In this document: positions 672 to 64,000 of the stretch, piece after piece
Position numbering within the stretch: position 1 is the stretch's first letter
Layout: each line of letters opens with the position of its first letter
Assembly: GCF_015706575.1 (NCBI RefSeq)
Contig: NW_024037076.1
Coordinates: 22,669,286-22,733,285 of the forward strand
Length of the DNA: 64,000 bases
Direction: 5' to 3'
DNA from: Patiria miniata
Lineage: Eukaryota
Notes under the pieces: generated by a model
Database searches by the model: none
Told to the model about the DNA's origin: nothing
Seen by the model: the letters and a program-made list of their open reading frames with translations, nothing else
Translations under genes and position numbers: made by a program

Positions 672-757
672 CTGTGTTTGACAAAGAAAAGCTCCTTTAA
701 AACCTATATTTTTTCTCATCACAATTGTATTTAAATATCATTTCTGCACCTTCCTAC

Positions 758-994
758 CTGATCTGTAGGTGTGTCTGTGTACAGCAAATAGCAAGGCTCT
801 GTTATTTCTGTTTCTGCGACGATGACTGAGCCATTCGGTTGAGTTACATTGTCGGATACAGTGAATGCCCTAGGATCCTGAGGGGAAAAAATAGAATAAA
901 AATATGCAATTGATAGAGTCTGTACATTTAGAGAAATTAGTTCAAATACCTCTGAAGCCAATTGCAGCCATTTTTTATCCCAAAAAAATGTAAT
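758..994 (-). CDS. TRPV: TRPV-like channel exon (S2 plus extended S2-S3 linker; 3' boundary uncertain)
   Basis: Acceptor aaacag|ATTACA. ITFFWDKKWLQLASEVFELISLNVQTLSIAYFYSIF aligns to the TRPV S2 helix (YLRLAGEVITLFTGVLFFF). The ORF stays open to a strong donor gatcag|gtagga at 757. A shorter exon ending earlier cannot be excluded. Confidence 0.4.
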
Positions 995-1027
995 CTGTTT
1001 CGATAGAAATATTTTTTCAATGTATAC

Positions 1028-1186
1028 CTTTCCAGGCCGAAGATAGAATGCTGTTGTGATCACAGCGAGGTAGAGAAGAAAGAATGCCAGACGAGCACAG
1101 AAATTGAAACGACCAAATGTCTTCCATTTCTCATCCAGCAGTTTGTAAATGACACCTTTCAACATCTGTAGATGCTCCTTACTAGT
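1028..1186 (-). CDS. TRPV: TRPV-like channel exon (pre-S1 and S1)
   Basis: Translates TSKEHLQMLKGVIYKLLDEKWKTFGRFNFCARLAFFLLYLAVITTAFYLRPGK. This matches the TRPV LLRDKWRKFG pre-S1 motif followed by the S1 helix. Boundaries tatag| and |gtatac. Confidence 0.7.
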
Positions 1187-1623
1187 CTATAAAAAGGAAC
1201 AGAAATATCAAAAGTTGTTAAATTATTAAAAAGACCACCATTTAATCTTCTTAAACCATAAAACCATAAAAATGTAGGTGATAGGCCTATTACATACATA
1301 ATTATATTATGTATGCACATGTCCATGCCAGTTCTGTCTTCTGTTCATGGCGGTTGGGTGCGTTTATCACCTGCAAATTTACTACAGGTGCACATGCATT
1401 ATACACAAATATCGTGCACCATTTCCCCTCATTTCCATAGTTTCATGAGCACTGACTAACCAGAGACAGCATATGCAACGGGTCGAGCCACATAACGCAC
1501 AAAACAATCCCACAGAGTGATGGACATAACTTAACATAATGAACATAATTATAACATAATCAATTAAGATGCGCTTGGGGTTTCATGCACTTAGCCACAC
1601 TCTTCCGTTAATTACAAACTTAC

Positions 1624-1875
1624 CTGGTTCACAATGAGATGCAAGGATGATTTATTATTGATGGAACCATCGTAGTTAATGCTATCTAGTCCATCCAGGG
1701 CATACGATGCACAGGTGACACTGCCATACTTCCATGAGAGTTGACGTTCTAAGAATAGGATATGCTCAAAGAGGTCTATTCTATGTAGCTTAGCAGCAAG
1801 GGATAGCGGAGTATAACCTTGCTTGTTCTTGATGGTACAGTCGCCACCTAACTCATACGCCAACGTGAACATATC
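1624..1875 (-). CDS. TRPV: TRPV-like channel exon (last ankyrin repeat and linker)
   Basis: Translates DMFTLAYELGGDCTIKNKQGYTPLSLAAKLHRIDLFEHILFLERQLSWKYGSVTCASYALDGLDSINYDGSINNKSSLHLIVNQ. The ankyrin motif GYTPLSLAAK is present. Boundaries cag| and |gtaagt, 252 nt in frame. Confidence 0.75.
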
Positions 1876-2379
1876 CTGACAGGAACAAAAAAGAAGTGAA
1901 AATCTGCAGTATTATTCTCATTTTTTTCTGCTAAGGTAACCAATTTGCTAAACCTCAGATAATTATTCTTTCAAAACTAACAAAAGAACTTAACAGCTAA
2001 AAACGCTTATCTTTGCCAGCCTGGGTGACATTCAAACCCAGAATACAAAGGTGGAAGGTGAAAGAAGAACCATTTTGCCAACCTGATTTTTTTTACATTT
2101 TTTTTGGTAATTTTTTTTTTTTTTTTACATATTTGTGCCTTTTTTGTCTTTCAACATATAACTGGCATTTTTTTCCAAAATATGTGTCAACATATTTCCT
2201 TGAATTGCTGAAGACAAAATACATCTTCAATTAATATGTGTATTCTGAGTAAGCCCCAAATGTATAATAAATTGTCAATTTATTAAAACAATTACGCATC
2301 CAAGACATTCTCCAGCAAACCACAAGACCCTAATGACACCTGACTCAATAACCTGCTACACAAGAGTCCAATCAATTAC

Positions 2380-12230: not shown

Positions 12231-12663
12231 CTGTAAAATACAAAATCAGGTCGTAAGCAAACTTTGATGAAAGCATACAGTCCAATTTATCAAGTTTGGT
12301 TAGTTTTAGTTATTTTAAGCTGAGGTGAGGGGCCTACTTGTTTCATTATTTGCAAGTGAAACAAAAATAACTTGAAACTCAAAACCAATTTAAGATTGGC
12401 AGGAAGCACCTGCATGATTTTATACAACACTGCCATCACAGCACAGGGAATGATTTGGAAAGAATTCCATACATGGACAACTTGCAAGTGTTTTCTCAGT
12501 AAATGCTTAAATATTTTCTCAGCTAAATTTGAATTTTTAGCACATGTTATTTCTTTCTGATGGTTGATAGGTCATTGCAGGGAAAAATTAGTGATGGCCA
12601 TATGGAATTCTTTCCCAAATGTGTTCCCTCCGTCTAGTCTAACTAGCTGACTCGTTAGTTGTT

Positions 12664-14470
12664 AAAGGGAATATACATCATTTGCTTTTGCTGTAATTTT
12701 CAAAAATGGATGGATTTGGGGGGTTGGTAATATATAGCAAATATTGTTACACTGACTTTTTTGACGTTTTGGGTTCGTAGATGCTTGAAAACCAGGAAAA
12801 ACAATATTGTTCCTGTAGTCTGGTTCCCTGACTCCATTTAAGATGAAACGGAGCAATTTATAGACATTGGGGAATTGTAAGGTTAGGGAACCAGTCTAGC
12901 TGGCTTGTACCTGTTTATAGGTGTGTAATCGATTTCAAACAAATGCGGACTAACTAAATATGGTCAATTGGGGCCAGAATTTGAAAAAAGCCAGTTTTTT
13001 CGAACGGTGGTCGGCCGACCAGCGTTGGAAATTGATACAAAAATACCACTTTTCTTAAAAATGACAGTAGGCCCTACACCAGATGCCATGATTTTACAGG
13101 ATGCTTAAGACTGTCATTCACTAACAGTCCGGCAAGGTATTTCGAAATAATTTGGTAGTTTTATTTTTGATGTTTGCAAATGTTGTATTTTCTCTTTAAA
13201 GGGAATATACATCATTTGCTTTGGCTGTAATTTTCAGAAATGGATGGAATTGGGGGGTTGGAAATATATAGCAAATATAGTTACACTGACTTTTTTGAGG
13301 TTTTGGGTTCAAAAATGCTATAAAAACCAAGAAAAACAATCATTTTCCTGTAGTCTGGTTCCCTGACTCCATTTAAGAAGAAACAGAGCAGTTTACATAC
13401 ATTGGGGAATTGTAAGGTCAGGAAACCAGTCTAGCTGGCTTGTACCCGTTCATAGGTGTGTAATCGATTGCAAACAAGTGCGATGGTCAACTGGGGCCAG
13501 TATTTGAAAAAAAGCCAGTTTTTTCCAACGCTGATCGGCCGATCAGCGTACTCCTAGAACTATGAGGCTCCACGTAGTGGAGCCTCATAGGTTCAGAAGC
13601 CCGCAAAATTGTTGTCAGCACAAAACACTAATTAAGTACAAAAACGTCCATCCCAAGCAGGCCGTTTTCCACAGAACCGCTGCACAGTTTGCCCCTAAAC
13701 TCCATACAATACCTCATGACATACTCACGTTATGTGCACCCAACAAACATCGGTGGATTCTGTCTGTTTTTCGGCAAAAATGATGAAAAATATGCCCTTT
13801 CTGCACTGAGCCAACCTAACACTTGAAACGAGCACGCGTGCAGAATGATCGCAGTTATTTTCGGTTCGATCGCTCGGAGCGCGCCGCGGGGGGTATGGTG
13901 TAGGAGCGGAACGATAGTATGCACATGCGTACAAGTGCAAGTACGTACCCCCCGCGGCGCGCTCCGAGCGATCGAACCGAAAATAACTGCGATCATTCTG
14001 CACGCGTGCTCGTTTCAAGTGTTAGGTTGGCTCAGTGCGGAAAGGGCATATTTTTCATCATTTTTGCCGAAAAACAGACAGAATCCACCGATGTTTGTTG
14101 GGTGCACATAACGTGAGTATGTCATGAGGTATTGTATGGAGTTTAGGGGCAAACTGTGCAGCGGTTCTGTGGAAAACGGCCTGCTTGGGATGGACGTTTT
14201 TGTACTTAATTAGTGTTTTGTGCTGACAACAATTTTGCGGGCTTCTGAACCTATGAGGCTCCACTACGTGGAGCCTCATAGTTCTAGGAGTACGATCAGC
14301 GTTGGAAATTGATACAAAAATACCACTTTTCTTGAAAATGACAGTATACCAGGTGCCGTGATTTTACAGGATGCTTTACACTGTCATTCACTAACAGTCC
14401 AGCAAGGTATTTCAAAATGATTTGGTAGTTTTATTTTTTGATGTTTGCAAATGTTGTATTTTCCCTTTAA
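12664..14470. repeat. Two tandem copies of a ~534-bp unit, the second interrupted by the foldback element
   Basis: Copy 1 spans 12664-13197. Copy 2 spans 13198-13548 and resumes at 14293-14470. Identity is about 90% (GGGAATATACATCATTTGCTTT...TGTATTTTC[T/C]CTTTAAA). Confidence 0.7.
13549..14292. mobile_element. Foldback (long perfect palindrome) element with 9-bp TSD CGATCAGCG
   Basis: A 744-bp element begins TACTCCTAGAACTATGAGGCTCCAC and ends GTGGAGCCTCATAGTTCTAGGAGTA. The arms (~345 bp) are near-perfect reverse complements around a ~54-bp central loop near 13900-13950. CGATCAGCG sits on both flanks (13540-13548 and 14293-14301). The unduplicated copy 1 of the host repeat shows the empty site. 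Confidence 0.75.
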
Positions 14471-15324
14471 ATGCCATCGACTAGCTGTTATGATCATGCC
14501 GCGCCTTTGCTTTGCACGCCCACTGTTGACTGTGTCTGCTGCCCCCTATCGACAACCAATTATTATATTAAGGCCAAATTTTAGCTCATTTTTTAATTGC
14601 TGAAATTCAACTACTAAAATAGCCTTGCATGCGATATTCATTTATCGAAACTACCTTCGGCACCCAGCTGATGTTTTGTCCATTTTTACAGTGGTTAATT
14701 GATGACAAGACCGACAACTGAGACTTGGAATTCCTGCACAGCTGACGGCAAAAAATTGAGAACATGTGAGCCGCCATGTTGATTTTGGTCTGGTTTCCTA
14801 CTCATTCTTTGGTGTAGCCTTTAGGTACGTTTTATGTCAGTGGATCCAGACTGTAACATTCGTCAACATTTTGCACGCGATCACCGCGCACCGGACCGAA
14901 ATGATGGCGAGTTCTCTCTTTTGCAAGATTATGCCGAGGGGTTTGAAGGTAAAGAAGCCCATTGTGCATGTTTGCAATATTTATGTGGATTTTCCGGAAT
15001 ATCTTTACTTTCGATGTTTTCTATCATCGAAAACTGCTCTGTCGATATGTCTGTATGTCTGTCTTACTTGTCTGTCCGCACGTAATGTGTTTTATTTCTC
15101 CATGGTCTGACCGTCTGACATGTCAGATCAGTGTGTCAGTCCATGGAGGAATAAGAACACACCCTCCATGGTCAGTCTCAGCATAGGCCCTAGAGCAAGG
15201 AACTCGGAATATCATTTGATTTTAAGATTTTCAGTGTGCCATGTGTGTAGAAACTGCTTTAGTAGTAAGACTACTATCATGACTATGGGGGAAATGATCC
15301 ATTGTTTTTTTTTTTAGTAGATTC

Positions 15325-16732
15325 TAGGCCTGTGCGACTAGTGTGACTAGTCGCCTAGTCGCCAATACTAAAAAGTATTGGTAGTCGGGACTATCAATTT
15401 CTGAATAGTCGACTAGTCGTGTGACGTGACTAGTCGCGACTACTGAAAGTAGTCGTGACTACTGAAAGTAGTCGTGACCATTGAAATTCACTAGTCACCC
15501 ACACCTGGAAGGGGGGTCAGACAAGTCGACCGTTGAGACAACTCGACTCGGGACAAGTCGACCGTTGAGACAACTCGACCGTTGAGACAACTCGACCGTA
15601 TGTGCGATAAATGGAAAGACAAGTCGACCGTTGAGACAAGTCGACCGTTAAGACAAGTCGCCGCCTCGCATGTTTTTGTTGCTAGTTTTGGGGATAGTCG
15701 CGGGGATTTTGACGGCGGCTGATCGCCGTTTGGGAGTGATGACACATGAGTTGTTTTTTTGTTGTTGGATATAACCATGATAACAGAGCCGATATAGCGC
15801 AGCCGGGCCTGTGCGCGCACTTATCCCCGGTCAGCGTCGGCCGTACCGTGCACGGTGACATCGTTTATGCCGGGCCTGTGCGCCCACTTGCCGCCCCGGT
15901 CGACGTGCCCGCGTGCCGGGCCGGGCCCGGTCCTCGCTGGCGGGGCGCGCCGGCCCGACGCGACGGCCACCGGATTGGAACGCCCTCTGTGCATCAAGTA
16001 TGCCCGCGCCGCGTCCGGGATCGCAACATTTTCCCGCTCCACGTGTATACATTTCCGCTAAGTCGAGCTGTCTCAACGGGCGAGTTGTCCCGAGTCGAGT
16101 TGTCTCAACGGGCGACTTGTCTCAACGGTCGACTTGTCCCGAGTCGAGTTGTCTCAACGGTCGACTTGTCTGACATCCTGAAAATGTGTGATCCAAGTAC
16201 ATGTAATTAAAAACGGCCCAATAAAGATGCTTAAGGAAGAAAGATTTAATAGTAACATTAAACAATGACAGAACATGAATGCCAAGTTCAGAGGCAATGC
16301 ATATTTTCTAATGTGATCACTCACAACTGAGTAAATCGGGGTTATCCCTACAAAGTACAATGAATGATGTAGTACTCACATGACACATGTGATTCCGTCA
16401 TTACTTTGCAAGCGTACATGTATCAAAGGCTTTATGCTTTTGTAGTACGCAGACTTTACTTTACACGATATTTAATTATAATAATCAATTCTGTCAAAAT
16501 ACCCCTAAACAATATGAAACCGTCTGATCACGACAAACTGACCTCCTTGTTTTTTTCTGGCCCACATGCTCATTGCACATGCGCAGACCGATATATTAGA
16601 TGTACTGCTGCACTGATTAGAGGTGTTTCTTGATAAATAAATAATGTGTTACTAGTCGCGACTAGTCCACTAGTCGTGACTATTTATCGCAACTAGTCGC
16701 GACTATTGAAATTCACTAGTCGCCCAGGCCTA
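15325..16732. mobile_element. hAT-like non-autonomous DNA transposon (8-bp TSD GTAGATTC)
   Basis: Terminal inverted repeats TAGGCCTGTGCGACTAGTG...CACTAGTCGCCCAGGCCTA. GTAGATTC flanks both ends (15317-15324 and 16733-16740). The subterminal region carries GACTAGTCG repeats. Internal tandem GACAAGTCGACCGTTGAGACAA repeats (15520-15660) recur inverted at 16060-16180. A GC-rich core spans 15780-16060. There is no transposase ORF. Confidence 0.65.
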
Positions 16733-16969
16733 GTAGATTCACGTAAATAATTTATGCTATCCTTGACCTTGTGGATGGCAGTATTAATTATTATTGGCAT
16801 ATTATAAAATAACACAAAATTGATGATAAACAATAAACATGATATTGCATTTGTTAAATGACGAGGAAGGAAAAGTAAAAAACAAAAAATAAAAATTAAA
16901 ACTAAAATAAAAACTAAAACTAAAACAAAAACACTAAAGAACTACTAATGCGGTATATTGTTTTCACAG

Positions 16970-18773: not shown

Positions 18774-19034
18774 GTGAGTTTACTGCTCAATCTATGATCT
18801 TCTTTGATGTAATACTTCATATAATACTCCATCATATAGTTTCCAATTGTTTATTTTTACTTTTTCTTTTAAGTAGTCCAGAGAATGTTTAAGTATATTT
18901 TCTTGTCCAGAAATTTGTCATTAATCAGGGTCAGGATATCATATGGAGCCCTTTGATTTGGCAAAATAAAATGTTATTACAAATCCTAATATTATTATGT
19001 TGATTTTTACAACTCCTTCTTTTCATCCTTCTAG

Positions 19035-19284
19035 GAAACTTGGGGATGGTCTCTTTCTTGAAAGTTGTCGTCAGATCTCCACTTTGTATCCCAAGATTCA
19101 GTTTGAGGCTATGATTGTTGACAACTGTTGCATGCAGCTAGTGTCTAACCCTCATCAGTTTGATGTGTTGGTCACTCCAAACCTCTACGGCAACATTGTT
19201 GATAACTTAGCGGCTGGTCTGGTTGGTGGGGCTGGAGTGGTTCCTGGCGAAAGCTTCTCATCAAAATACGCAATATTTGAACCT
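19035..19284 (+). CDS. IDH3B: IDH3B exon
   Basis: Translates [83 protein letters not shown]. Confidence 0.9.
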
Positions 19285-19647
19285 GTAAGTTTATGCAGAA
19301 TTGTATACATTATCTAACTGCAAGCGCAAGCCTGTAGAAGAATTGGCTGAAAAGTTACATTTTTTAACTGCTAGTTAAAATTTCTATCAATCAAACAATA
19401 AATAGTTCAAATATCTTAATTCTAGATTTAAGGGCTTTTGATCATTTTGTCGATGTGTTTCAGATACTATCATTGCTGTCCACTTTTGCTACTTTTCTGC
19501 TATTAGTAGCAGTTAGCTCCATTTGTGAATTTCCTGTAGTTACATTTCATTTCACTGACTCAGTTTATAGATCTTTCTGTTGATATTAGATGTGTTGATA
19601 GATAGGTTCATTATTAATAATTTGTATTTTTTCCTTGGACTGATCAG

Positions 19648-20970: not shown

Positions 20971-21394
20971 AAAGCTGCAATAGATGTATTGATAGACAAC
21001 AAGAAAACACAAGAAAATTGGTCGTTTCAGTTGATATATATATTACACATATATACATATGTGCATTCATATTTATAATCATCAAACCCTCTGTTTGATT
21101 TGCCAAAGTTACAAGTTAATTCAGTTAATTCTATTAATCATCTACTTAAGATTGATAAAAGCAAATTGGGTGCTAAACAGTTCAGGAATGTTTGAAAAAA
21201 TGTGATACGAAACATTTATCTTAGGAAGCAATATGCATTTAAAAATGTGTAGCCACCATTACAATAGGTAAACAGAAAACAGATATGACATATGGGAAAG
21301 ATCTTTTTGGGATGCAAAATAATTTTTGCATTTTTTTATCTCTGTATTCTATATATGTTTTGGATATTGAATAAATATAGACCATTTTTAAAGG

Positions 21395-31990: not shown

Positions 31991-33140
31991 GGTGAGTCCT
32001 CGTTACTCACTATCTCATGTTATGGAGTAGGTGATATCAGAAAGCTAGCTTACTTTGTATCATCTATCGATGCTGACTATGTACCAGGCAAGGTGAGTCC
32101 TCGTTTCTCACTATCTCATGTTATGGAGCAGGTGATAACAGAAAGCTAGCTTACTTTGTATCATCAATCGATGCTGACTATGCACCAGGCAAGGTGTGAT
32201 AACAGAAAGCTAGCTTACTTTGTATCATCAATCGATGCTGACTATGCACCAGGCAAGGTGTGATAACAGAAAGCTAGCTTACTTTGTATCATCAATCGAT
32301 GCTGACTATGCACCAGGCAAGGTGAGTCCCCGTTACTCACTATCTCATGTTATGGAGCAGGTGATATCAGAAAGCTAGCTTACTTTGACTCATCAATCGA
32401 TGCTGACTATGCACCAGGCAAGGTGAGTCCTCGTTACTCACTATCTCATGTTATGGAGCAGGTGATATCAGAAAGCTAGCTTACTTTGACTCATCTATCG
32501 ATGCTGACTATGCACCAGGCAAGGTGAGTCCTCGTTACTCACTATCTCATGTTATGGAGCAGGTGATATCAGAAAGCTAGCTTACTTTGACTCATCAATC
32601 GATGCTGACTATGCACCAGGCAAGGTGAGTCCTCGTTACTCACTATCTCATGTTATGGAGCAGGTGATATCAGAAAGCTAGCTTACTTTGTATCATCAAT
32701 CGATGCTGACTATGCACCAGGCAAGGTGAGTCCTCGTTACTCACTATCTCATGTTATGGAGCAGGTGATAGCTTACAAAGAAAGCTAGCTTACTTTGTAT
32801 CATCAATCGATGCTGACTATGCACCAGGCAAGGTGAGTCCTCGTTACTCACTATCTCATGTTATGGAGCAGGTGATATCAGAAAGCTAGCTTACTTTGTA
32901 TCATCTATCGATGCTGACTATGCACCAGGCAAGGTGAGTCCCCGTTACTCACTATCTCATGTTATGGAGCAGGTGATATCAGAAAGCTAGCTTACTTTGA
33001 ATCATCAATCGATGCTGACTATGCACCAGGCAAGGTGAGTCCTCGTTACTCACTATCTCATGTTATGGAACAGGTGATATCAGAAAGCTAGCTTTCTTTG
33101 ACTCATCAATCGATGCTGACTATGCACCAGGCAAGGTGAG
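31991..33140 (+). repeat. Tandem array (about 12 units of ~100-104 bp) copying the 3' 63 nt of MVP exon 14 plus ~36 nt of the downstream intron
   Basis: Unit GTGAGTCCTCGTTACTCACTATCTCATGTTATGGAGCAGGTGATATCAGAAAGCTAGCTTACTTTG[A/T][A/C]TCATC[A/T]ATCGATGCTGACTATGCACCAGGCAAG. Two shortened units at ~32180-32310 lack the intronic part. A further diverged unit follows a hairpin insertion at ~33718-33815. Confidence 0.85.
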
Positions 33141-33544
33141 TCCTCATTACTCATTATAACACCACACCCACAGATTCTGTGTCTTGATTGGCCGAGAGCG
33201 ATTCACATGTTACTTTCTAATTTTGCTATCTTTCTATGCACGGCCAAAAGTACTATGCGCATAGCAACTAAAGTACTATACCATTAGCAACCAAAGTACT
33301 ATTTCCATGGCGCGGTACTTGTGTGCAAATGCATGCTGGTGTGCGCGTTGCACGTTGTGCGTAGCGCGTATTATTCCAAAGAGAGCGCGCCGCAGACTTG
33401 GGTTCAAACATTTCGTGAAGGGTTAGTTTTTAAAGAGAGAAATACATTTTCCACCAATTTTGTATTGAAATTGAAGTTTATTTCAACTGTGTTCAATAAT
33501 GTAAAATATTAAAATCAAGCAGAATCTGTGGGTGAAGTGTTATA

Positions 33545-35697: not shown

Positions 35698-35784
35698 GTA
35701 AAGTTGCTGTTTCTTGTGTCATATTGGTCATGACAAATTTAACAGTAACCTATTGATTTGTTTTGCCTTTCTTTTTAAAGATTA

Positions 35785-36345
35785 AAGGGGCCATGGGATG
35801 GATTTTTCTGAGGAGCACATTTTGTGCAACTTTGTAATCCTCGTAAATGTATCACAACTATTTGTTATTCCCTTTTTGGTAAATTTTATTGAAAAGTGCT
35901 CTTCTTTAAACATTTAAAATTGTCCATGCTTTCCCGGACAACTGAGGACACTGTTGCTGTGATATCAGATAGACACTATTCAGTTTAGGAGTTTTCTGTT
36001 CAAATTGTGAACACAAAAGTTGCTCAATGAAGCCATTTGTGAGGAAGGGTTGCTTATTGGCTCACTGTCATGTACTGACATAACAACGAAAGAACAGAAC
36101 ATTTACAGCAAAATATCAAATATTCTAGCAACTTTTTGTTCTGAAATAGCTGTAACATTGAGGTTTCTGCCCGGAATGACATCAAAGATTTGCTCATGAA
36201 TATGAAAATTGCAATAGCATTAAAACCAAAAAGGCACCAAAATAACCCTTCCAACTTGCGAAACAAAAATTGAAAAAGGTTAAATGGGACACAGAGATGC
36301 AATTGAAAGGAGAGCGTTAAAAAATTACATTGAGTGGCTCTTTAA
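35785..36345 (+). repeat. Interspersed ~560-bp repeat, copy B (in MVP intron 20)
   Basis: About 75% identical to 21395-21960 in the same orientation. Confidence 0.55.
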
Positions 36346-36957: not shown

Positions 36958-37426
36958 GTAAGTATTAATTTGTAACGTGTTAAAAATCCATCATATTAAA
37001 TGCTTGCATTTTTTTCTTCATTGGAACTGTTGTCTTTGTATTGCAATATTACTCTGGGGTGCTCATTGCCTTTTTCACCTATGCATTTGTTACACATGAT
37101 TGGATTTGTTCCACATGTGCTCCTTTTCAGTTTTAGAGTCTGTTTGTTCAACTTTGTGAGAATTAGACAACACATTATGATTTTTAACAGGTGAAAAATT
37201 GCAGCATGTATTCTGATGCAAAAATATCGCTAGTTCTTAATCTTGATAAAAGGAGTCACTATACGTTATGAGTCTACAGCAATATCAGCTTTACAGTCAT
37301 TCTGGGTTAGTTTTAGGGCATATAGTCTGATCATCTTACGTCACATGTTCACCTGTTTTGGTTCAAGTGTTTCTGCGATATTCTTGTTTATCTGTTTATC
37401 ATTTCAATACATTATTTCAATCGCAG

Positions 37427-37607
37427 GTCAATTGAGAGAGCTGCAGCCCATGACGCTGCCAGGAAGGAACAAGAATCTCGAGGTTTAATAGATCGACAGA
37501 AACTCCTGAATGAGAAAGAAGCAGAACAGCAGAGAGCCAAGCTGTTTGAGTTACAGGCAGAAGCTGCGGCGATTGAGTCAACAGGGCAAGCTAAAGCTGA
37601 AGCACAG
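37427..37607 (+). CDS. MVP: MVP exon 22 (coiled-coil region)
   Basis: Translates KSIERAAAHDAARKEQESRGLIDRQKLLNEKEAEQQRAKLFELQAEAAAIESTGQAKAEAQ. Confidence 0.85.
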
Positions 37608-37713
37608 GTAGGAGGAGAGATTTGAACTAAGAGTGCTTCTGCTAACTCACTCTTTATTATAAGCGTGTAATTCTGAAATTTGAACACTCATGAGTCCATT
37701 CTCTCACTCACAG

Positions 37714-37905
37714 GCCCGTGCTGAATCTCTCCTCATTGAATGTCACAGCGCTATTGACTCAGCTCGACTCAAAGCCCAAGCTGACGAGGTCATTCATGAA
37801 TCGGAGCTGCAGTCTCGGAATCTACTTCGTATGTCAGAACTTGGCTACAAACGGCGACTGAATGAGACAGAGATTAATAAAGCCGATGAACTCTGTGGTA
37901 TCGAG
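37714..37905 (+). CDS. MVP: MVP exon 23
   Basis: Translates ARAESLLIECHSAIDSARLKAQADEVIHESELQSRNLLRMSELGYKRRLNETEINKADELCGIE. Confidence 0.85.
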
Positions 37906-38105
37906 GTAAGATTATGGAGGAGTTTCATTTATGCATCCCTTTATTTTCCTCGTAATCTGCTCAGTGTTATTCCTTTTGTTGTTCCATTGTTTCATGTGTT
38001 TAATGTAAGGATTCATAGACCAGTTTTATACATTGTGCCAATTTATAAATCTTTTTCCAGAGAACTATAGAGACAGTTTCATATCCCATGTTTCCAAACT
38101 CTCAG

Positions 38106-38499: not shown

Positions 38500-38800
38500 C
38501 TATACTGATGCGTTATGGAAGCCGATACACCTTTTTTTTACTGAAAAATTCCAAGGGTTTAACGTTGAATTTTCCTTCGAAATTGCAAGGGGTTAACCTT
38601 ATATATGTTTTTTTTTATTTCAAATTGAAACCGGTGAATCTTATTTTTTTTTATCAAAAGCTGCAAGGGGTTAACCTTACATTTTTCATTAAAATATACA
38701 AGGTGTTAACCTCGTCTTTTTTACTAAAAAATTCCAAGTGGTAAGCTTGTGTGCTTTATTACAAATTGCAAGGGGTTAATCTTACACTGCTTTTATATCA
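38500..38800 (-). repeat. Inverted partial copies of the 54-bp satellite inside the last MVP intron
   Basis: Several CAAGGGGTTAACCTTACATTTTT units appear here. This is the reverse complement of the satellite core AAAATGTAAGGTTAACCCCTTG. Confidence 0.7.
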
Positions 38801-40555: not shown

Positions 40556-43500
40556 TATTCTTTCTGGCAAGCTGTCATTTTGCAATTTTTGATGAAAAAT
40601 GCCGAAAAATGTAGGGTTAACCCCTTGCAATTTTTGATGAAAAATGCCATTTTTGATGCAAAATGTAAGGTTAACCCCTTGCAATTTTTGATGAAAAATG
40701 CCGAAAAATGTAAGGTTAACCCCTTGCAATTTTTGATGAAAAATGCCATTTTTGATGCAAAATGTAAGGTTAACCAATTGTTATTTTTGATGAAAAATGC
40801 CATTTTTGATGAAAAATGTAAGGTTAACCCCTTGCAATTTTTGATGAAAAATGTCGAAAAATGTAGGGTTAACCCCTTGTTATTTTCGATGAAAAATGCC
40901 GTTTTTGATGAAAAATGTAAGGTTAACCCCTTGTTATTTTTGATGAAAAATGCCGTTTTTGATGAAAAATGTAAAGTTTACCCCTTGCAATTTTTGATGA
41001 AAAATGCCATTTTTGATGAAAAATGTAAGGTTAACCCCTTGCAATTTTTGATGAAAAATGCCATTTTTGATGAAAAATGTAAGGTTAACCCCTTGCAATT
41101 TTTGATGAAAAATGTAAGGTTAACCCCTTGCAATTTTTGATGAAAAATGTAAGGTTAACCCCTTGTTATTTTCGATGAAAAATGCCATTTTTGATGAAAA
41201 ATGTAAGGCTAACCCCTTGCAAATTTTGATGAAAAATGCCGGTTTTTTTCCATGAAAATTGCCGTTTTTGATGCAAAATGTAAGGTTAACCCCTTGCAAT
41301 TTTTGATGAAAAATGCCGAAAAATGTAAGGTTAACCCCTTGTTATTTTTGATGAAAAATGCCATTTTTGATGAAAAATGTAAGGTTAACCCCTCGCAATT
41401 TTTGATGAAAAATGCCGAAAAATGTAAGGTTAACCCCTTGTTATTTTCGATGAAAAATGCCGTTTTTGATGCAAAATGTAAGGTTAACCCCTTGTTATTT
41501 TTGATGAAAAATGCCATTTTTGATGAAAAATGTAAGGTTAACCCCTTGCAATTTTTGATGAAAAATGCCGTTTTTGATGAAAAATGTAAGGTTAACCCCT
41601 TGCAATTTTTGATGAAAAATGCCATTTTTGATGAAAAATGTAAGGTTAACCCCTTGCATTTTTTGATGAAAAATGCCATTTTTGATGCAAAATGTAAGGT
41701 TAACCCCTTGCAATTTTTGATGAAAAATGTCGAAAAAAGTAAGGTTAACCCCTTGTTATTTTCGATGAAAAATGCCGTTTTTGATGAAAAATGTAAGGTT
41801 AACCCCTTGCAATTTTTGATGAAAAATGCCATTTTTGATGAAAAATGTAAGGTTAACCACTTGTTATTTTCGATAAAAAATGCCGTTTTTGATGACAAAT
41901 GTAAGGTTAACCCCTTGCAATTTTTGATGAAAAATGCCGAAAAATGTAAGGTTAACCCCTTGCAATTTTTGATGAAAAATGCCAATTTTGATGAAAAATG
42001 TTGAAAAATGTAAGGCTAACCCCTTGCAAATTTTGATGAAAAATGCCGTTTTTTTCCATGAAAATTGCCGTTTTTGATGAAAAATGTAAGGTTAACCCCT
42101 TGCATTTTTTGATGAACAATGCCATTTTTGATGCAAAATGTAAGGTTAACCCCTTGCAATTTTTGATGAAAAATGCCGAAAAATGTGAGGTTAACCCCTT
42201 GCAATTTTTGATGAAAAATGCCATTTTTGATGCAAAATGTAAGGTTAACCCCTTGTTATTTTTGATGAAAAATGCCAGTTTTGATGAAAAATGTAAGGTT
42301 AACCCCTTGCAATTTTTGATGAAAAATGCCATTTTTGATGAAAAATGTAAGGTTAACCCCTTGTTATTTTTGATGAAAAATGCCATTTTTGATGAAAAAT
42401 GTAAGGTTAACCCCTTGCAATTTTTGATGAAAAATGTCGAAAAATGTAAGGTTAACCCCTTGTTATTTTCGATGAAAAATGCCGTTTTTGATGAAAAATG
42501 TAAGGTTAACCCCTTGCAATTTTTGATGAAAAATGCCATTTTTTATGCAAAATGTAAGGTTAACCCCTTGTTATTTTTGATGAAAAATGCCATTTTTGAT
42601 GAAAAATGTAAGGTTAACCCCTTGCAATTTTTGATGAAAAATGTCGAAAAATGTAAGATTAACCCCTTGTTATTTTTGATCAAAAATGTAAGGTTAACCC
42701 CTTGCAATTTTTGATGAAAAATGCCATTTTTGATGAAAAATGTAAGGTTAACCCCTTGTTATTTTCGATGAAAAATGCCATTTTTGATGAAAAATGTAAG
42801 GTTAACCCCTTGCAATTTTTGATGAAAAATGTCGAAAAATGTAAGGCTAACCTCTTGCAATTTTTGATGAAAAAAGCCATTTTTGATGAAAAATGTAAGG
42901 TTAACCCCTTGTTATTTTCGATGAAAAATGCCATTTTTGATGAAAAATGTAAGGCTAACCCCTTGCAATTTTTGATGAAAAATGCCATTTTTGATGAAAA
43001 ATGTAAGGTTAACCCCTTGCAATTTTTGATGAAAAATGCCATTTTTGATGAAAAATGTAAGGTTAACCCCTTGCAATTTTTGATGAAAAATGTCGAAAAA
43101 TGTAAGGTTAACCCCTTGTTATTTTTGATGAAAAATGCCGTTTTTGATGAAAAATGTAAGGTTAACCCCTTGCAATTTTTGATGAAAAATGCCATTTTTT
43201 ATGCAAAATGTAAGGTTAACCCCTTGTTATTTTTGATGAAAAATGCCATTTTTGATGAAAAATGTAAGGTTAACCCCTTGCAATTTTTGATGAAAAATGT
43301 CGAAAAATGTAAGATTAACCCCTTGTTATTTTTGATCAAAAATGTAAGGTTAACCCCTTGCAATTTTTGATGAAAAATGCCATTTTTGATGAAAAATGTA
43401 AGGTTAACCCCTTGCAATTTTTGATGAAAAAAGCCATTTTTGATGAAAAATGTAAGGTTAACCCCTTGCAATTTTTGATGAAAAATGTCGAAAAATGTAA

Positions 43501-45790
43501 GGCTAACCTCTTGCAATTTTTGATGAAAAAAGCCATTTTTGATGAAAAATGTAAGGTTAACCCCTTGTTATTTTCGATGAAAAATGCCATTTTTGATGAA
43601 AAATGTAAGGCTAACCCCTTGCAATTTTTGATGAAAAATGCCATTTTTGATGAAAAATGTAAGGTTAACCCCTTGCAATTTTTGATGAAAAATTCCATTT
43701 TTGATGAAAAATGTAAGGTTAACCCCTTGCAATTTTTGATGAAAAATGTCGAAAAATGTAAGATTAACCCCTTGTTATTTTTGATCAAAAATGTAAGGTT
43801 AACCCCTTGCAATTTTTGATGAAAAATGTAAGGTTAACCCCTTGCAATTTTTGATGAAAAATGTCGAAAAATGTAAGGCTAACCCCTTGCAATTTTTGAT
43901 GAAAAATGCCATTTTTGATGAAAAATGTAAGGTTAACCCCTTGCAATTTTTGATGAAAAATGCCAGTTTTGATGAAAAATGTAAGGTTAACCCCTTGCAA
44001 TTTTTGATGAAAAATGCCATTTTTGATGAAAAATGTAAGGTTAACCCCTTGCAATTTTTGATGAAAAATGTCGAAAAATGTAAGGATAACCCCTTGTTAT
44101 TTTTGATGAAAAATGTCGTTTTTGATGAAAAATGTAAGGTTAACCCCTTGCAATTTTTGATGAAAAATGCCGTTTTTGATGAAAAATGTAAGGTTAACCC
44201 CTTGCAATTTTTGATGAAAAATGTCGAAAAATGTAAGGCTAACCCCTTGCAATTTTTGATGAAAAATGCCATTTTTGATGAAAAATGTAAGATTAACCCC
44301 TTGTTATTTTTGATCAAAAATGTAAGGTTAACCCCTTGCAATTTTTGATGAAAAATGCCATTTTTGATGAAAAATGTAAGGTTAACCCCTTGCAATTTTT
44401 GATGAAAAATGTCGAAAAATGTAAGGCTAACCCCTTGCAATTTTTGATGAAAAATGCCATTTTTGATGAAAAATGTAAGGCTAACCCCTTGCAATTTTTG
44501 ATGAAAAAAGCCATTTTTGATGAAAAATGTAAGGTTAACCCCTTGTTATTTTCGATGAAAAATGCCGTTTTTGATGAAAAATGTAAGGTTAACCCCTTGC
44601 AATTTTTGATGAAAAATGCCATTTTTGATGAAAAATGTAAGGTTAACCCCTTGTTATTTTTGATGAAAAATGCCATTTTTGATGAAAAATGTAAGGTTAA
44701 CCCCTTGTTATTTTTGATGAAAAATGCCGTTTTTGATGCAAAATGTAAAGTTTACCCCTTGCAATTTTTGATGAAAAATGTAAGGTTAACCCCTTGCAAT
44801 TTTTGATGAAAAATGCCATTTTTGATGAAAAATGTAAGGTTAACCGCTTGCAATTTTTGATGAAAAATGTCGAAAAATGTAAGGCTAACCCCTTGTTATT
44901 TTTGATGAAAAATGCCGTTTTTGATGCAAAATGTAAAGTTTACCCCTTGCAATTTTTGATGAAAAATGCCATTTTTGATGAAAAATGTAAGGTTAACCCC
45001 TTGCAATTTTTGATGAAAAATGCCATTTTTGATGAAAAATGTAAGGTTAACCCCTTGCAATTTTTGATGAAAAATGTAAGGTTAACCCCTTGCAATTTTC
45101 GATGAAAAATGCCATTTTTGATGAAAAATGTAAGGCTAACCCCTTGCAATTTTTGATGAAAAATGCCATTTTTGATGAAAAATGTAAGGTAAACCCCTTG
45201 TTATTTTCGATGAAAAATGCCATTTTTGATGAAAAATGTAAGGTTAACCGCTTGCAATTTTTGATGAAAAATGTCGAAAAATGTAAGGCTAACCCCTTGC
45301 AATTTTTGATGAAAAATGCCATTTTTGATGCAAAATGTAAGGTTAACCCCTTGTTATTTTTGATGAAAAATGCCATTTTTGATGAAAAATGTAAGGTTAA
45401 CCCCTTGCAATTTTTGATGAAAAATGTAAGGTTAACCCCTTGCAATTTTTGATGAAAAATGCCGGTTTTTTTCATGAAAATTGCCGTTTTTGATGCAAAA
45501 TGTAAGGTTAACCCCTTGTTATTTTCGATGAAAAATGCCATTTTTGATGCAAAATGTAAGGTTAACCCCTTGTTATTTTCGATGAAAAATGCCATTTTTA
45601 ATGCAAAATGTAAGGTTAACCCCTTGCAATTTTGGATGAAAAAATGCTGTGTTTGATGAAAAATGTAAGGCTAACCCCTTGCAAATTTTGATGAAAAATG
45701 CCGTTTTTTTTCCATGAAAATTGCCGTTTTTGATGCAAAATGTAAGGTTAACCCCTTGCAATTTTTGATGAAAAATTTCAAAGGGACATT
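40556..45790 (+). repeat. 54-bp AT-rich satellite (~95 copies, 5.2 kb) with higher-order periodicity, downstream of MVP
   Basis: Unit CTTGCAATTTTTGATGAAAAATGCCATTTTTGATGAAAAATGTAAGGTTAACCC, with variants (CCGAAAAATG in place of the second sub-repeat; 35-45-bp short units). A marker variant AAGATTAACCCCTTGTTATTTTTGATCAAAAATG recurs at ~42655, 43310, 43765 and 44290, giving ~455-655-bp spacing. The long ORFs on both strands are repeat artefacts. Confidence 0.9.
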
Positions 45791-51473: not shown

Positions 51474-52275
51474 CTTAACCATGGAAAAAGAATTGATGAT
51501 GAAGATGTTTATATGAGAACACACCACATTTCACATATTGCCTTGTATGCCTTTTTTGCTGTCACTGAATTTCACATTAATAAATCCTTTCCATATCTTT
51601 TCACATAAAATGTACTTTAAATACAAGCTGTTATGACATAATTAAGTGTCTCTTAATAATGAAAGGTTTGCGGAAACACCATGTGCGAATAATTTCTCAA
51701 CTAAGAGAATGGTCCTGAAAAGAACCTGAGGTAGGTGTCTCTTGAGTTCAGTAATCTTCCTTCTTTCCTTGCATACGGATCACGCCATACAGCAACATTC
51801 AATAGTGTTCTGCTTGTCTGCTAGTCAGTCTTTTTCTTGCATCATCTGTCATCAAAGTTTTACTTATTTTGTATTTCATCTATATTCTCATTCTTTACTA
51901 GCCCCACAAATGTGGCTGAAGTACTGGACTTCCTCCGTACTAGTAAGCCACACAACCTTGATACACTATGTCACTGATGCAATTTGGCAAAGTTGACGTA
52001 TGCTTATTGGAAAGCACGGGTATCATGACCCTTGACCTCAACCAGATTACAGGAATATGGATGCTACGGTTTTTTTCTGCCCGAAAGCCGTCCGACTTTT
52101 GACCAATATTACAGGATAACTAGACCTCTGAATATACAGAATTCAAAGTTTTTTTAACTTGGGTGATTTTCAAGTGACGGCCATATCCACATACATAGTA
52201 AATCATGGTTGTGCGGTTTACTAGTACAGAGGAAGTCTACTTAAGCCACATTTATAGGGCTCATTCTTTACTTAC

Positions 52276-54989: not shown

Positions 54990-56280
54990 ATCTACAGAAT
55001 GATAAGAGTATTACTACCCATTACACTAGAAATCTACAGAAAAATGGGTATTACTATTACTACCCTTCAGACAAAAACTCTTTGTTTTAAATATAGTCTC
55101 ATCCCTTACATCAGTCTTTCAAATTCTCAGTAACTCTGGCCAAATCAACTCTTATAGTATTATTATTAGTTTATTACTACCCATCACACTAGAAATCTAC
55201 AGAAAAATGGTTATTACTAGTACTACCCTTCGTACAAAAACTCTTTGTTTTAAAAATAGTCTCATCCCTTACATCAGTCTTTCAAATTCTCAGTAACTCT
55301 GGCCAAATCAACCCGTATAGTATTATTATTAAGGGAATAAATGTGTGCTCCGGAGGTTTTTATCACTCGTTTAATACCGCTTAGAGTCTGGGTGCTGATA
55401 ATTACCCGAGCCGGAGGCGAGGGTAATTATCAGCACCCAGACTCTAAGCGGTATTAAACGAGTGATAAATACCGACTGAGCACATATTTATTCCCATTCA
55501 TAAATACCTTATCCGTAGAAAAATTTCAAATAATTCGTTCAAAAAATCCCGATTTTGTTCAACAAGTTCACTTTATGCTTTTTGAAACATCCCTCTAGCA
55601 AAATAATGGAGTGTTCAGCTGGCGAGTAAGATGTAAACAACCCTTTTATGGAGATTGACGCGCGCGTAACATGTTCTGCGTGATGTCACGCAGAACGCAC
55701 CTGGGGCGTTGCGTTTTGAATTTAGAACTATAAAATTCTGACTCGCTTGTAGTGTTGCGCATGCCTACGTGAGGATTGTGAACGTTCAACCAATGAAACG
55801 GTAAGAGGCACTGGATTTTTAGGAGTCCACATTTTATTGTGACACTGGAAAAGTGTTTAAGACCAGCTAGCCATGTCTTTATCATCCGTTTAATACCAGC
55901 CACGTGACGGGCTCTCGACCAATAGGAATACCTAAACTGTCTGAGGTATTTATGAATAGTATATTACTACCCATCACACTAGAAATCTACAGAAAAATGG
56001 GTATTACTAGTACTACCCTTCGTACAAAAACTCTGTTTTAAAAATAGTCTCATCCCTTACATCAGTCTTTCAAATTCTCAGTAACCCTGGCCAAATCAAC
56101 CTGTATAGTATTATTATTAGTATATTACTACCCATCACACTAGAAATCTACAGAAAAATGGGTATTACTAGTACTACCCTTCGTACAAAAACTCTGTTTT
56201 AAAAATAGTCTCATCCCTTACATCAGTCTTTCAAATTCTCAGTAACCCTGGCCAAATCAACCCGTATAGTTTTCTTATTT
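54990..56280 (+). repeat. ~170-bp tandem repeat (at least 5 copies) interrupted by nested insertions
   Basis: Unit TACTACCCATCACACTAGAAATCTACAGAAAAATGG[G/T]TATTACTAGTACTACCCTTCGTACAAAAACTCT..TCATCCCTTACATCAGTCTTTCAAATTCTCAGTAAC[T/C]CTGGCCAAATCAAC. Copies start near 55010, 55180, 55960 and 56130. Confidence 0.8.
55333..55495. mobile_element. Palindromic MITE nested in the 170-bp tandem array
   Basis: GGGAATAAATGTGTGCTC...CGAGCCGGAGGCGAG...GAGCACATATTTATTCCC. The ~75-bp arms are near-perfect reverse complements. A second element with CATTCATAAATACC / GGTATTTATGAATAG termini follows at ~55496-55956. Confidence 0.6.
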
Positions 56281-62800: not shown

Positions 62801-63152
62801 CTAGAATTGGGAATATTGAGTTCTTCAATAAATATGGACCAATTTGTACTCTTGACTTTAAGCATCAAGTCACATACGAGTTGATAAACAAATTGAAAAA
62901 CGACAACAAATTGGTGAAAATCAAAACTCAGGCAAGCAGCAGCAACATTACCCTAAGTAATCCGATATAAGAAGCATATTGTGCTTCCATTCATTCCAAT
63001 TCTATCATTGGAAGAAAATAAATTCTTGAGAATCAAAACTTTTAAAAATGTTGGAAAAAAATTAATAAATACACAATTTGAACTCATTTCATTCCACACT
63101 ATATCTTGGCTCTTCATTTTTGTGGAAAAGTTGTAAAATTGATTTTACTTAC

Positions 63153-63317
63153 CCCAATATAATCAATGGTTAAATTGTGGTGAGTTTTTGCTCCTTGTAT
63201 CCATTTGATGATGTAGTCAACAGTGACATCGATATTGACATAGGGACTTTGTTGGCCATTCCCAATCCAGCCGGGGAAAGCCCAAGGAAGGCCATACAGC
63301 TTGATGCTTGGATTGCG
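63153..63317 (-). CDS. GALC: GALC exon
   Basis: Translates [59 protein letters not shown] has [55 protein letters not shown]. Confidence 0.9.
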
Positions 63318-63627
63318 CTGCAGAAAGATGCAACATGAAACAGTAGTGGCTAAAAAAAAACAACCAAAAGGGGAGGGGCCAGGGAAGAGACTGGGGGGGG
63401 GGGGGGGGAGGGGCGGACACCACTCCCTGCTAGAGCCAAATGAACCCCAGCCACCCCCTCCCCCTTTGGCCTGATTCGTTCCCCACCCCCCTTTCCCTGC
63501 ACTTACAAAACAGATTCAGATGGTGTACATTTTGAACATCAATCAAAAACCTCATAGGTGCTATATACAGCTGCCCCCCCCCCAAAAAAAATGTGTAAGA
63601 ACACCCCAAAACAAGTCTCTCTTTTAC

Positions 63628-63780
63628 CTTTTTAGCCTCCTTCATCAGCCACCATTCATATCCTCTCTGATAATTCTCATCGTTAGCTGAATGCATATGC
63701 GATGACTCAGTTCCGTCAGTGCTTTGTGAGTCTCCACCAATCTCAACCTTTAAGATGTGAAGTGATGCTCCAAAATTTGG
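63628..63780 (-). CDS. GALC: GALC exon (the 5' exons lie beyond the window end)
   Basis: Translates [55 protein letters not shown] has [51 protein letters not shown]. Confidence 0.9.
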
Positions 63781-64000
63781 CTGTTAACGGGCAAAATCAG
63801 AACTACATCAATTAGTTTTTTTTTTTTATTAAACTTCATTTCGTGCAATTTTCTTCTCCACAAAACAATTGATTGACAATTATGTCTGGGAAACACAGTT
63901 TTGTGGTTAAGTTTTTCATATCAATTGTGCAGCCAAAACAGTTATAAATCAGTTACAGTGTATAGCAAATAAACTGTTATTCCTTGGAAAAGGTCAAATT

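Follow-up and report, generated by a model that had tools for sequence, protein, structure and literature searches.

What is the almost perfectly palindromic 744-bp sequence that interrupts one unit of a direct repeat in the Patiria miniata genome, and how did it come to lie there? The sequence occupies positions 13549-14292 of a 64,000-nt stretch of DNA, the whole of which was analysed and which we call the window; we delimited it by reading and by self-comparison. In an ungapped self-comparison its two arms are reverse complements at 346/347 positions. The preliminary description had called this foldback perfect, with arms of about 345 bp and a centre of about 54 bp. The palindrome is real and those dimensions were essentially right, but the match is near-perfect rather than perfect, with arms of 347 nt and a 50-nt centre (Table 1). 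The sole arm mismatch sets a T at 13802 against position 14039, which reads as C in the reverse complement, so that CTGCAC in the left arm faces CCGCAC in the right, or TpG versus CpG. Except for these two positions, every non-complementary position is confined to the centre.

Folded as a single strand, the element reaches -730 kcal/mol, compared with -226 ± 8 kcal/mol in shuffled sequences (z = -60). The ORF listing does contain the mirror-image ORF pairs noted earlier, which are a trivial consequence of the palindrome. The only internal feature of the arms is a subterminal hairpin close to each tip, and the left one has an imperfect extension (79% over 28 nt) that crosses the element tip into the flanking duplication. 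The arms are otherwise unique sequence: no 8-mer is repeated within an arm, and TRF, at a score threshold of 200, was silent there.

Table 1. Features of the foldback, its insertion site, the host repeat and the surrounding intron, in window coordinates.
Feature	Position	Strand	Description
Target-site duplication, left copy	13540-13548		CGATCAGCG
Target-site duplication, right copy	14293-14301		CGATCAGCG
Empty paralogous target in sister unit	13016-13024		CGACCAGCG, one copy; from repeat search and gapped alignment
Left arm (terminal inverted repeat)	13549-13895	+	347 nt, begins TACTCCTAGAAC; from repeat search and ungapped self-comparison
Asymmetric centre, loop of the foldback	13896-13945		50 nt
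Right arm	13946-14292	-	347 nt, ends GTTCTAGGAGTA; CpG kept at 14039 (TpG in the left arm)
Subterminal hairpin, left arm	13560-13590		14-bp stems CTATGAGGCTCCAC / GTGGAGCCTCATAG, 3-nt loop, begins 11 nt from the tip
Subterminal hairpin, right arm	14251-14281		Mirror of 13560-13590
Host unit A	12662-13199	+	TTAA-AGGGAATATAC...GTATTTTCTCT-TTAA, uninterrupted
Host unit B	13196-14471	+	Second such unit, split by the foldback
Intron 1 (GT..AG) of Patiria miniata LOC119719984, CMD-domain protein	12231-14654	-	Holds the foldback and both host units

Both ends of the foldback abut the same 9-mer, and the two copies are identical (9/9), in agreement with the 9-bp target-site duplication first proposed. 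Such a repeat could in principle belong to the element itself. In the sister unit, however, the 9-mer (CGACCAGCG) occurs once, and both flanks of the insertion align to either side of it. Thus, the 9-mer is host DNA that was present once before the insertion, and it forms no part of the element termini. The alignment of both flanks to the sister unit likewise bears out the claim that a filled and an empty paralogous site stand side by side in this one window.

The exact boundary deserves care. Strictly, the flanking direct repeat is 10 nt long (CGATCAGCGT) and extends the 9-mer by one T, because the first base of the element and the next base of the host are both T. Only a 9-nt split yields symmetric termini, TACTCC...GGAGTA, whereas a split of 8 or 10 leaves one terminal base unpaired. 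The repeat search also stretched the inverted repeat by 9 nt per side into CGATCAGCG, because 6/9 positions of the 9-mer match its own reverse complement by chance.

The repeat that received the insertion had been described as a tandem duplication of 534 bp. A direct repeat of about that length is indeed present: when 12662-13199 is aligned with 13196-13548 joined to 14302-14471, 482/519 positions are identical (92.9%), and there are several indels. This repeat is not, however, an anonymous duplication, but a dimer, and its unit has TTAA boundaries and inverted ends of its own. Each unit begins with TTAA-AGGGAATATACATCATTTGC and finishes with GCAAATGTTGTATTTTC(T/C)CT-TTAA; the inverted ends match at 23/25 positions, the termini are AG..CT, and TTAA is found at 12662 (left flank), 13196 (junction) and 14467 (right flank). 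A TTAA duplication combined with 5'-RR...YY-3' termini is the signature of Kolobok, as against piggyBac, and P. miniata is reported to have a Kolobok lineage with frequent tandem multimers (PMC9587614). Both marks of this signature are carried by the host unit of about 530 bp; the comparison concerns that unit and not the foldback.

From its termini and flanks, a more fitting description of the host thus appears to be a head-to-tail dimer of a Kolobok-like non-autonomous element that inserts into TTAA. Either a second insertion into the TTAA at its flank or duplication through unequal exchange can have produced the dimer, and the data fit both origins. Reading the host as a dimer leaves the argument from filled and empty sites intact and alters only the nature of the sister copy. 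Removal of the insert from unit B restores a perfect 34-nt palindrome at the centre of that unit, TTTCCAACGCTGATCGG joined to CCGATCAGCGTTGGAAA, and the equivalent palindrome in unit A is preserved at 30/34 positions. The foldback entered this palindrome one base away from its centre.

The foldback also differs from its surroundings in composition. Its GC content is 48% and its CpG observed/expected ratio 1.05; the corresponding window values are 37% and 0.53, and CpG ratios in the host units are 0.46-0.68. Among 619 windows of equal size, 19 reach the CpG value of the foldback and 7 reach its GC content. The arms differ from each other at 1/347 positions (0.3%), and the host units at 37/519 (7.1%). 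Taken together, the richness in CpG within a CpG-depleted host, the lone CpG/TpG mismatch between the arms and the roughly 25-fold lower divergence indicate that the foldback is young. Judged by these divergences, the insertion would be roughly 25 times younger than the split between the host units, unless the arms have been homogenised by conversion. The insertion is therefore recent when set against the time since the host units diverged, and the earlier proposal that it post-dates their separation holds.

We searched the element for coding capacity. Its ORFs reach 97 aa at most, and when concatenated they had no protein homologue at E <= 0.01 among 5.8 billion proteins. An exhaustive HMMER search with a 73-aa ORF returned one match (E = 6e-4), a translated satellite repeat that we regard as spurious, and exact-protein look-ups of the element ORFs found none on record. 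By these searches, the foldback has no coding capacity. An RNA gene origin can be ruled out, as no Rfam family scored above threshold and no tRNA was found in the foldback; the best Rfam match, to a miRNA precursor at 28 bits versus a gathering score of 73, is explained by the hairpin shape.

Relatives of the foldback were sought in and beyond the window. The terminal 25-mer occurs in the window at the two element ends only (and in 0/100 shuffles), the 12-mer is otherwise at chance level, and a sensitive BLASTN comparison of one arm plus the centre with the 64-kb window found no relative. The 64-kb window thus holds no second copy. Repetitiveness is the hallmark of a transposon family, and a single foldback copy in 64 kb counts against a transposon. 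We found no transposase in the 64-kb window, and exact-pattern scans of metagenome contigs, prokaryotic genomes and IMG/VR gave no match to the foldback. Searches of literature text with the element end sequences returned unrelated primers only. IS10/Tn5-type elements likewise make 9-bp duplications; contamination by a bacterial IS, a vector or a phage was rejected, as the foldback had no BLASTN match among plasmids, E. coli genomes or phages.

The foldback and its host dimer lie in a gene. Two ORF-rich stretches at 10.9-11.8 kb of the window, translated as spliced sequence, are 99% identical to the uncharacterized protein LOC119719984 [Patiria miniata], which places the window in the bat star genome; the next best matches are from Acanthaster (90%) and Asterias (88%). 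The 254-aa LOC119719984 protein maps to four minus-strand exons at 98-100% identity, with differences only at the aligned exon ends. Together, the foldback and the host repeat make up about 75% of intron 1, and about 360 bp separate the right end of the foldback from the splice donor of exon 1. Further exons in the window (Iso_dh, GH59, ankyrin and CMD) mark it as a gene-rich animal region. Given this position, pre-mRNA of the host gene would likely carry a near-perfect hairpin of 347 bp.

We conclude that the 744-bp element is very probably a non-autonomous, foldback-shaped (MITE-like) class II DNA transposon. Its terminal inverted repeats stop exactly where the duplicated host target begins, which is the structure of such a transposon, and its want of any transposase coding capacity is what makes it non-autonomous. 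Inverted repeats that end precisely at a host duplication of fixed length are the footprint expected when a DDE transposase acts in trans by cut-and-paste; the transposase and its superfamily are both inferred. In the mechanism we propose, a DDE transposase whose gene lies at another locus of the Patiria miniata genome would recognise the ends of the arms, where the terminal TACTCCTAGAAC and the adjacent palindrome with 14-bp stems are the likely recognition sites. The transposase would excise the foldback and insert it at a target cut whose two nicks are 9 bp apart, and gap repair would then yield the duplicated CGATCAGCG. The landing site is close to the centre of the 34-nt palindrome in the older TTAA-flanked dimer, within intron 1.

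Which transposase might this have been? When the transposase itself is absent, the length of the target duplication is the accepted clue to the superfamily (PMC4079207, PMC10045372). Mutator-like elements (MULEs) make duplications of 8-11 bp and typically have long TIRs, commonly of more than 100 bp (PMC6446971), and the foldback, with a 9-bp duplication and 347-nt TIRs, agrees on both counts. Animal MULEs such as Muta1 have duplications of 8-9 bp, a palindromic terminal motif and hundreds of non-autonomous derivatives (PMC5225508). The foldback-like element Tm1, with 9-bp duplications, carries a Mutator-type transposase (PMC3169594; cf. PMC4079207). A Mutator review mentions MULEs in echinoderms, which appears to be a slip for cnidarians, and we have not counted it as evidence. 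Granted that the foldback is a transposon, we estimate the chance of Mutator (MuDR) as slightly short of even, that of AcademH as substantial and that of something else as small. The label "Mutator/Foldback-like" in the preliminary description names only one of two superfamilies that fit, AcademH being the other, and the arms are without the tandem subrepeats that characterise classical Foldback elements and that most animal MULEs carry subterminally.

The alternative that survives best is that the foldback is a non-autonomous element of the AcademH lineage, moved by an Academ transposase with a superfamily II helicase and not by a Mutator-type transposase. AcademH duplications are 9 or 10 bp long, and the direct repeat of the foldback is 9 nt and extendable to 10; nearly every Academ family begins with a pyrimidine at the 5' end and finishes with a purine at the 3' end, and the foldback has 5'-T...A-3' (PMC7165386). 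The TIRs of AcademH elements reach 526-575 bp, short palindromic non-autonomous derivatives are abundant, and members of the lineage are known from Strongylocentrotus purpuratus and Saccoglossus, in families that start TAG... (PMC7165386). However, the terminal 9-11-mers of the foldback have internal chance matches only and lie at no consensus terminus in the data of PMC7165386, a set without a sea star family, and the deuterostome AcademHP families begin with TAG where the foldback has TAC. We regard an AcademH origin as possible but hold it to be the less likely assignment.

A different superfamily with duplications of 8-9 bp, such as Merlin, hAT or P, with slightly atypical boundaries, is improbable. 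The 10-nt span of the direct repeat does leave room for an 8-bp duplication with asymmetric ends, but such a duplication, as hAT would make, leaves an unpaired C at one end, and the symmetric boundaries are those of a 9-bp duplication. In addition, hAT ends are usually YARNG, which TACTC of the foldback does not fit. Merlin elements have duplications of 8-9 bp and TIRs of up to 462 bp, but those TIRs share a conserved terminal 5'-GG (PMC8101967), and the foldback begins with TA.

We also considered that the foldback might not be a transposon at all, but an inverted duplication produced by template switching during DNA repair or replication, or else a long-read mis-assembly. One copy of the foldback is known, its arms are almost identical, as expected of a newly made palindrome, and the target is itself a palindrome and prone to hairpin formation. 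Against this, the inserted sequence has no similarity to anything in the window and differs from it in base composition, which argues that it is not a local inverted copy, and its ends coincide exactly with a clean host duplication of 9 bp. As to mis-assembly, the surrounding assembly gives the annotated LOC119719984 protein essentially exactly (98-100%). We therefore consider these origins very unlikely.

Most unlikely of all is that the foldback was not borne by a transposase but is what remains of an integrated linear DNA with hairpin ends, for example an ITR-only mini-genome of a sea-star densovirus with a deleted core; a target duplication of precisely 9 bp is the mark of a DDE transposase and not of parvoviral integration. 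Each end of the foldback can form an imperfect hairpin of about 56 nt, the arms resemble long inverted terminal repeats around such a deleted core, the composition is foreign to the window, and sea-star densovirus ITRs are at least 271 nt long with terminal hairpins of about 90 nt (PMC7054102); however, protein searches found no viral coding remnant in the foldback, and exact-pattern scans of IMG/VR and BLASTN against phage records, both weak tests of this origin, gave no match. If it were true, the foldback would be an unusual kind of endogenous viral element.

Taken as a non-autonomous DNA transposon, the foldback is a clean example of an ordinary mobile element and no new kind of system, and it will not surprise transposon specialists. 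Its main value is for annotation: it points to a foldback-type family of DNA transposons in the developmental model species Patiria miniata that is young and may still be mobile. The diagnostics are unusually clean for a single window, which holds a target duplication, an empty paralogous site and an age contrast. As a hairpin in intron 1, the element is also a plausible source of double-stranded RNA. If the family is active, its transposase, of Mutator or AcademH type, could be of interest for echinoderm genome dynamics and for endogenous transposon tools.

Among known systems, classical Foldback (FB) elements have both the foldback shape and the 9-bp duplication in common with the present element. 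Sea urchin TU elements have the foldback shape too, and their arms are modular arrays of short tandem repeats. FB arms are modular arrays of the same kind (PMC4079207), in contrast to the present arms, which are unique sequence. A neighbouring element at 15325-16732 of the window suits the modular FB/TU style better than the foldback does.

The AcademH-N families of oysters and scallop and AcademHP-1_SP of the sea urchin resemble the foldback in their duplications of 9-10 bp and in their pyrimidine/purine ends; AcademH elements can likewise have long TIRs and short palindromic derivatives, and the lineage occurs in echinoderms and hemichordates (PMC7165386). The published AcademH families start CAATC... 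or TAG..., whereas the foldback starts TACTCC.

The resemblance to foldback and MITE elements of the Mutator superfamily is one of structure. The present element differs from them in that its arms are without tandem subrepeats and in that no transposase-encoding relative of it is known. The likenesses are several. Tm1 of root-knot nematodes, the Muta1 derivatives of Aedes aegypti and Tetris of Drosophila virilis have duplications of 8-10 bp, mostly 9 bp, as the foldback has (PMC3169594, PMC5225508, PMC4079207), and the palindromic terminal motif of Muta1 recalls the subterminal hairpin of the foldback arms. In these Mutator elements and in the foldback alike, very long arms form most of a short, non-coding element, and the insertion lies within or close to the 5' portion of a gene.

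The ~530-bp repeat that hosts the foldback (the 744-bp non-autonomous element at 13549-14292) has inverted ends of its own, matching at 23 of 25 positions. TTAA is found at all three boundaries of the dimer that its two copies form (12662, 13196 and 14467), and the unit has AG..CT termini. Together, these boundaries and termini are a Kolobok signature, not a piggyBac one. Kolobok multimers are already on record in P. miniata (PMC9587614).

Each host unit carries a central palindrome, with GGTCGG|CCGACC in one copy and GATCGG|CCGATC in the other; the differences sit at mirror-image positions. They compensate for each other and leave the palindrome intact, suggesting that it has been either corrected from a hairpin template or kept under selection.

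Repeats, elements and exons in the window
Feature	Position	Description
Exons of neighbouring genes	734-1911(-); 18970-19314(+); 37326-38067(+); 51730-51993(+); 63117-63783(-)	
Foldback host repeat	12662-14471	head-to-tail dimer, unit ~530 bp
Central palindrome, one per host unit	12998-13031; 13522-13548 + 14302-14308	34 nt
Second non-autonomous element	15325-16732 (with flanks 15317-16740)	
Internal inverted repeat of second element	15516-15596 / 16094-16174	81 nt, 17-bp subrepeats, 98%
Dispersed repeat, two copies	21388-21828; 35782-36208	83-90% identity, start TTAAAGGGG...
Tandem array	31921-33157	101-bp unit, about 12 copies, identity 94-100%
Variant block inside tandem array	32132-32324	64 bp
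Diverged satellite unit copies	38534-38786	54-bp unit, inverted orientation
AT-rich satellite	40604-45708	5.1 kb, 54-bp unit
Two repeat dimers	55009-55331; 55950-56279	161-163-bp repeat, spaced about 0.9 kb
Inverted repeat adjoining the dimers	55333-55495	80 nt, 91% complementary, spacer 3 nt

The dispersed two-copy repeat is possibly a further TTAA-inserting family, and the dimers at 55-56 kb with their adjoining inverted repeat look like another small palindromic element. Above its basic unit, the AT-rich satellite shows higher-order periodicity at 153 and 207 bp, and it gives rise to long spurious ORFs on both strands. The region holds many repeats yet is gene-dense: Pfam identified isocitrate/isopropylmalate dehydrogenase and glycosyl hydrolase 59 (galactocerebrosidase-like) among the neighbouring exons, as well as ankyrin with a score under the curated cut-off. 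Others, assigned by eye only, we take to be TRPV-like, major vault protein-like and sideroflexin-like.

The second non-autonomous element has the TIR TAGGCCTG(T/G)GCGACTAGTG, subterminal repeats of 19 bp and an 8-bp duplication, GTAGATTC; judged by the length of this duplication, it is hAT-like. Its core is GC-rich and holds a 154-aa ORF with no Pfam match.

The ends of the second, hAT-like element are also similar to those of AcademHP-1_SP (TAGCCTGACCAGAC...), a published sea urchin AcademH family.

A Mutator review mentions 'echinoderms' a single time (PMC6446971, section 5), at a point where the data it presents are from cnidarians. The review is not to be used as a source for Mutator-superfamily elements (MULEs) in echinoderms.
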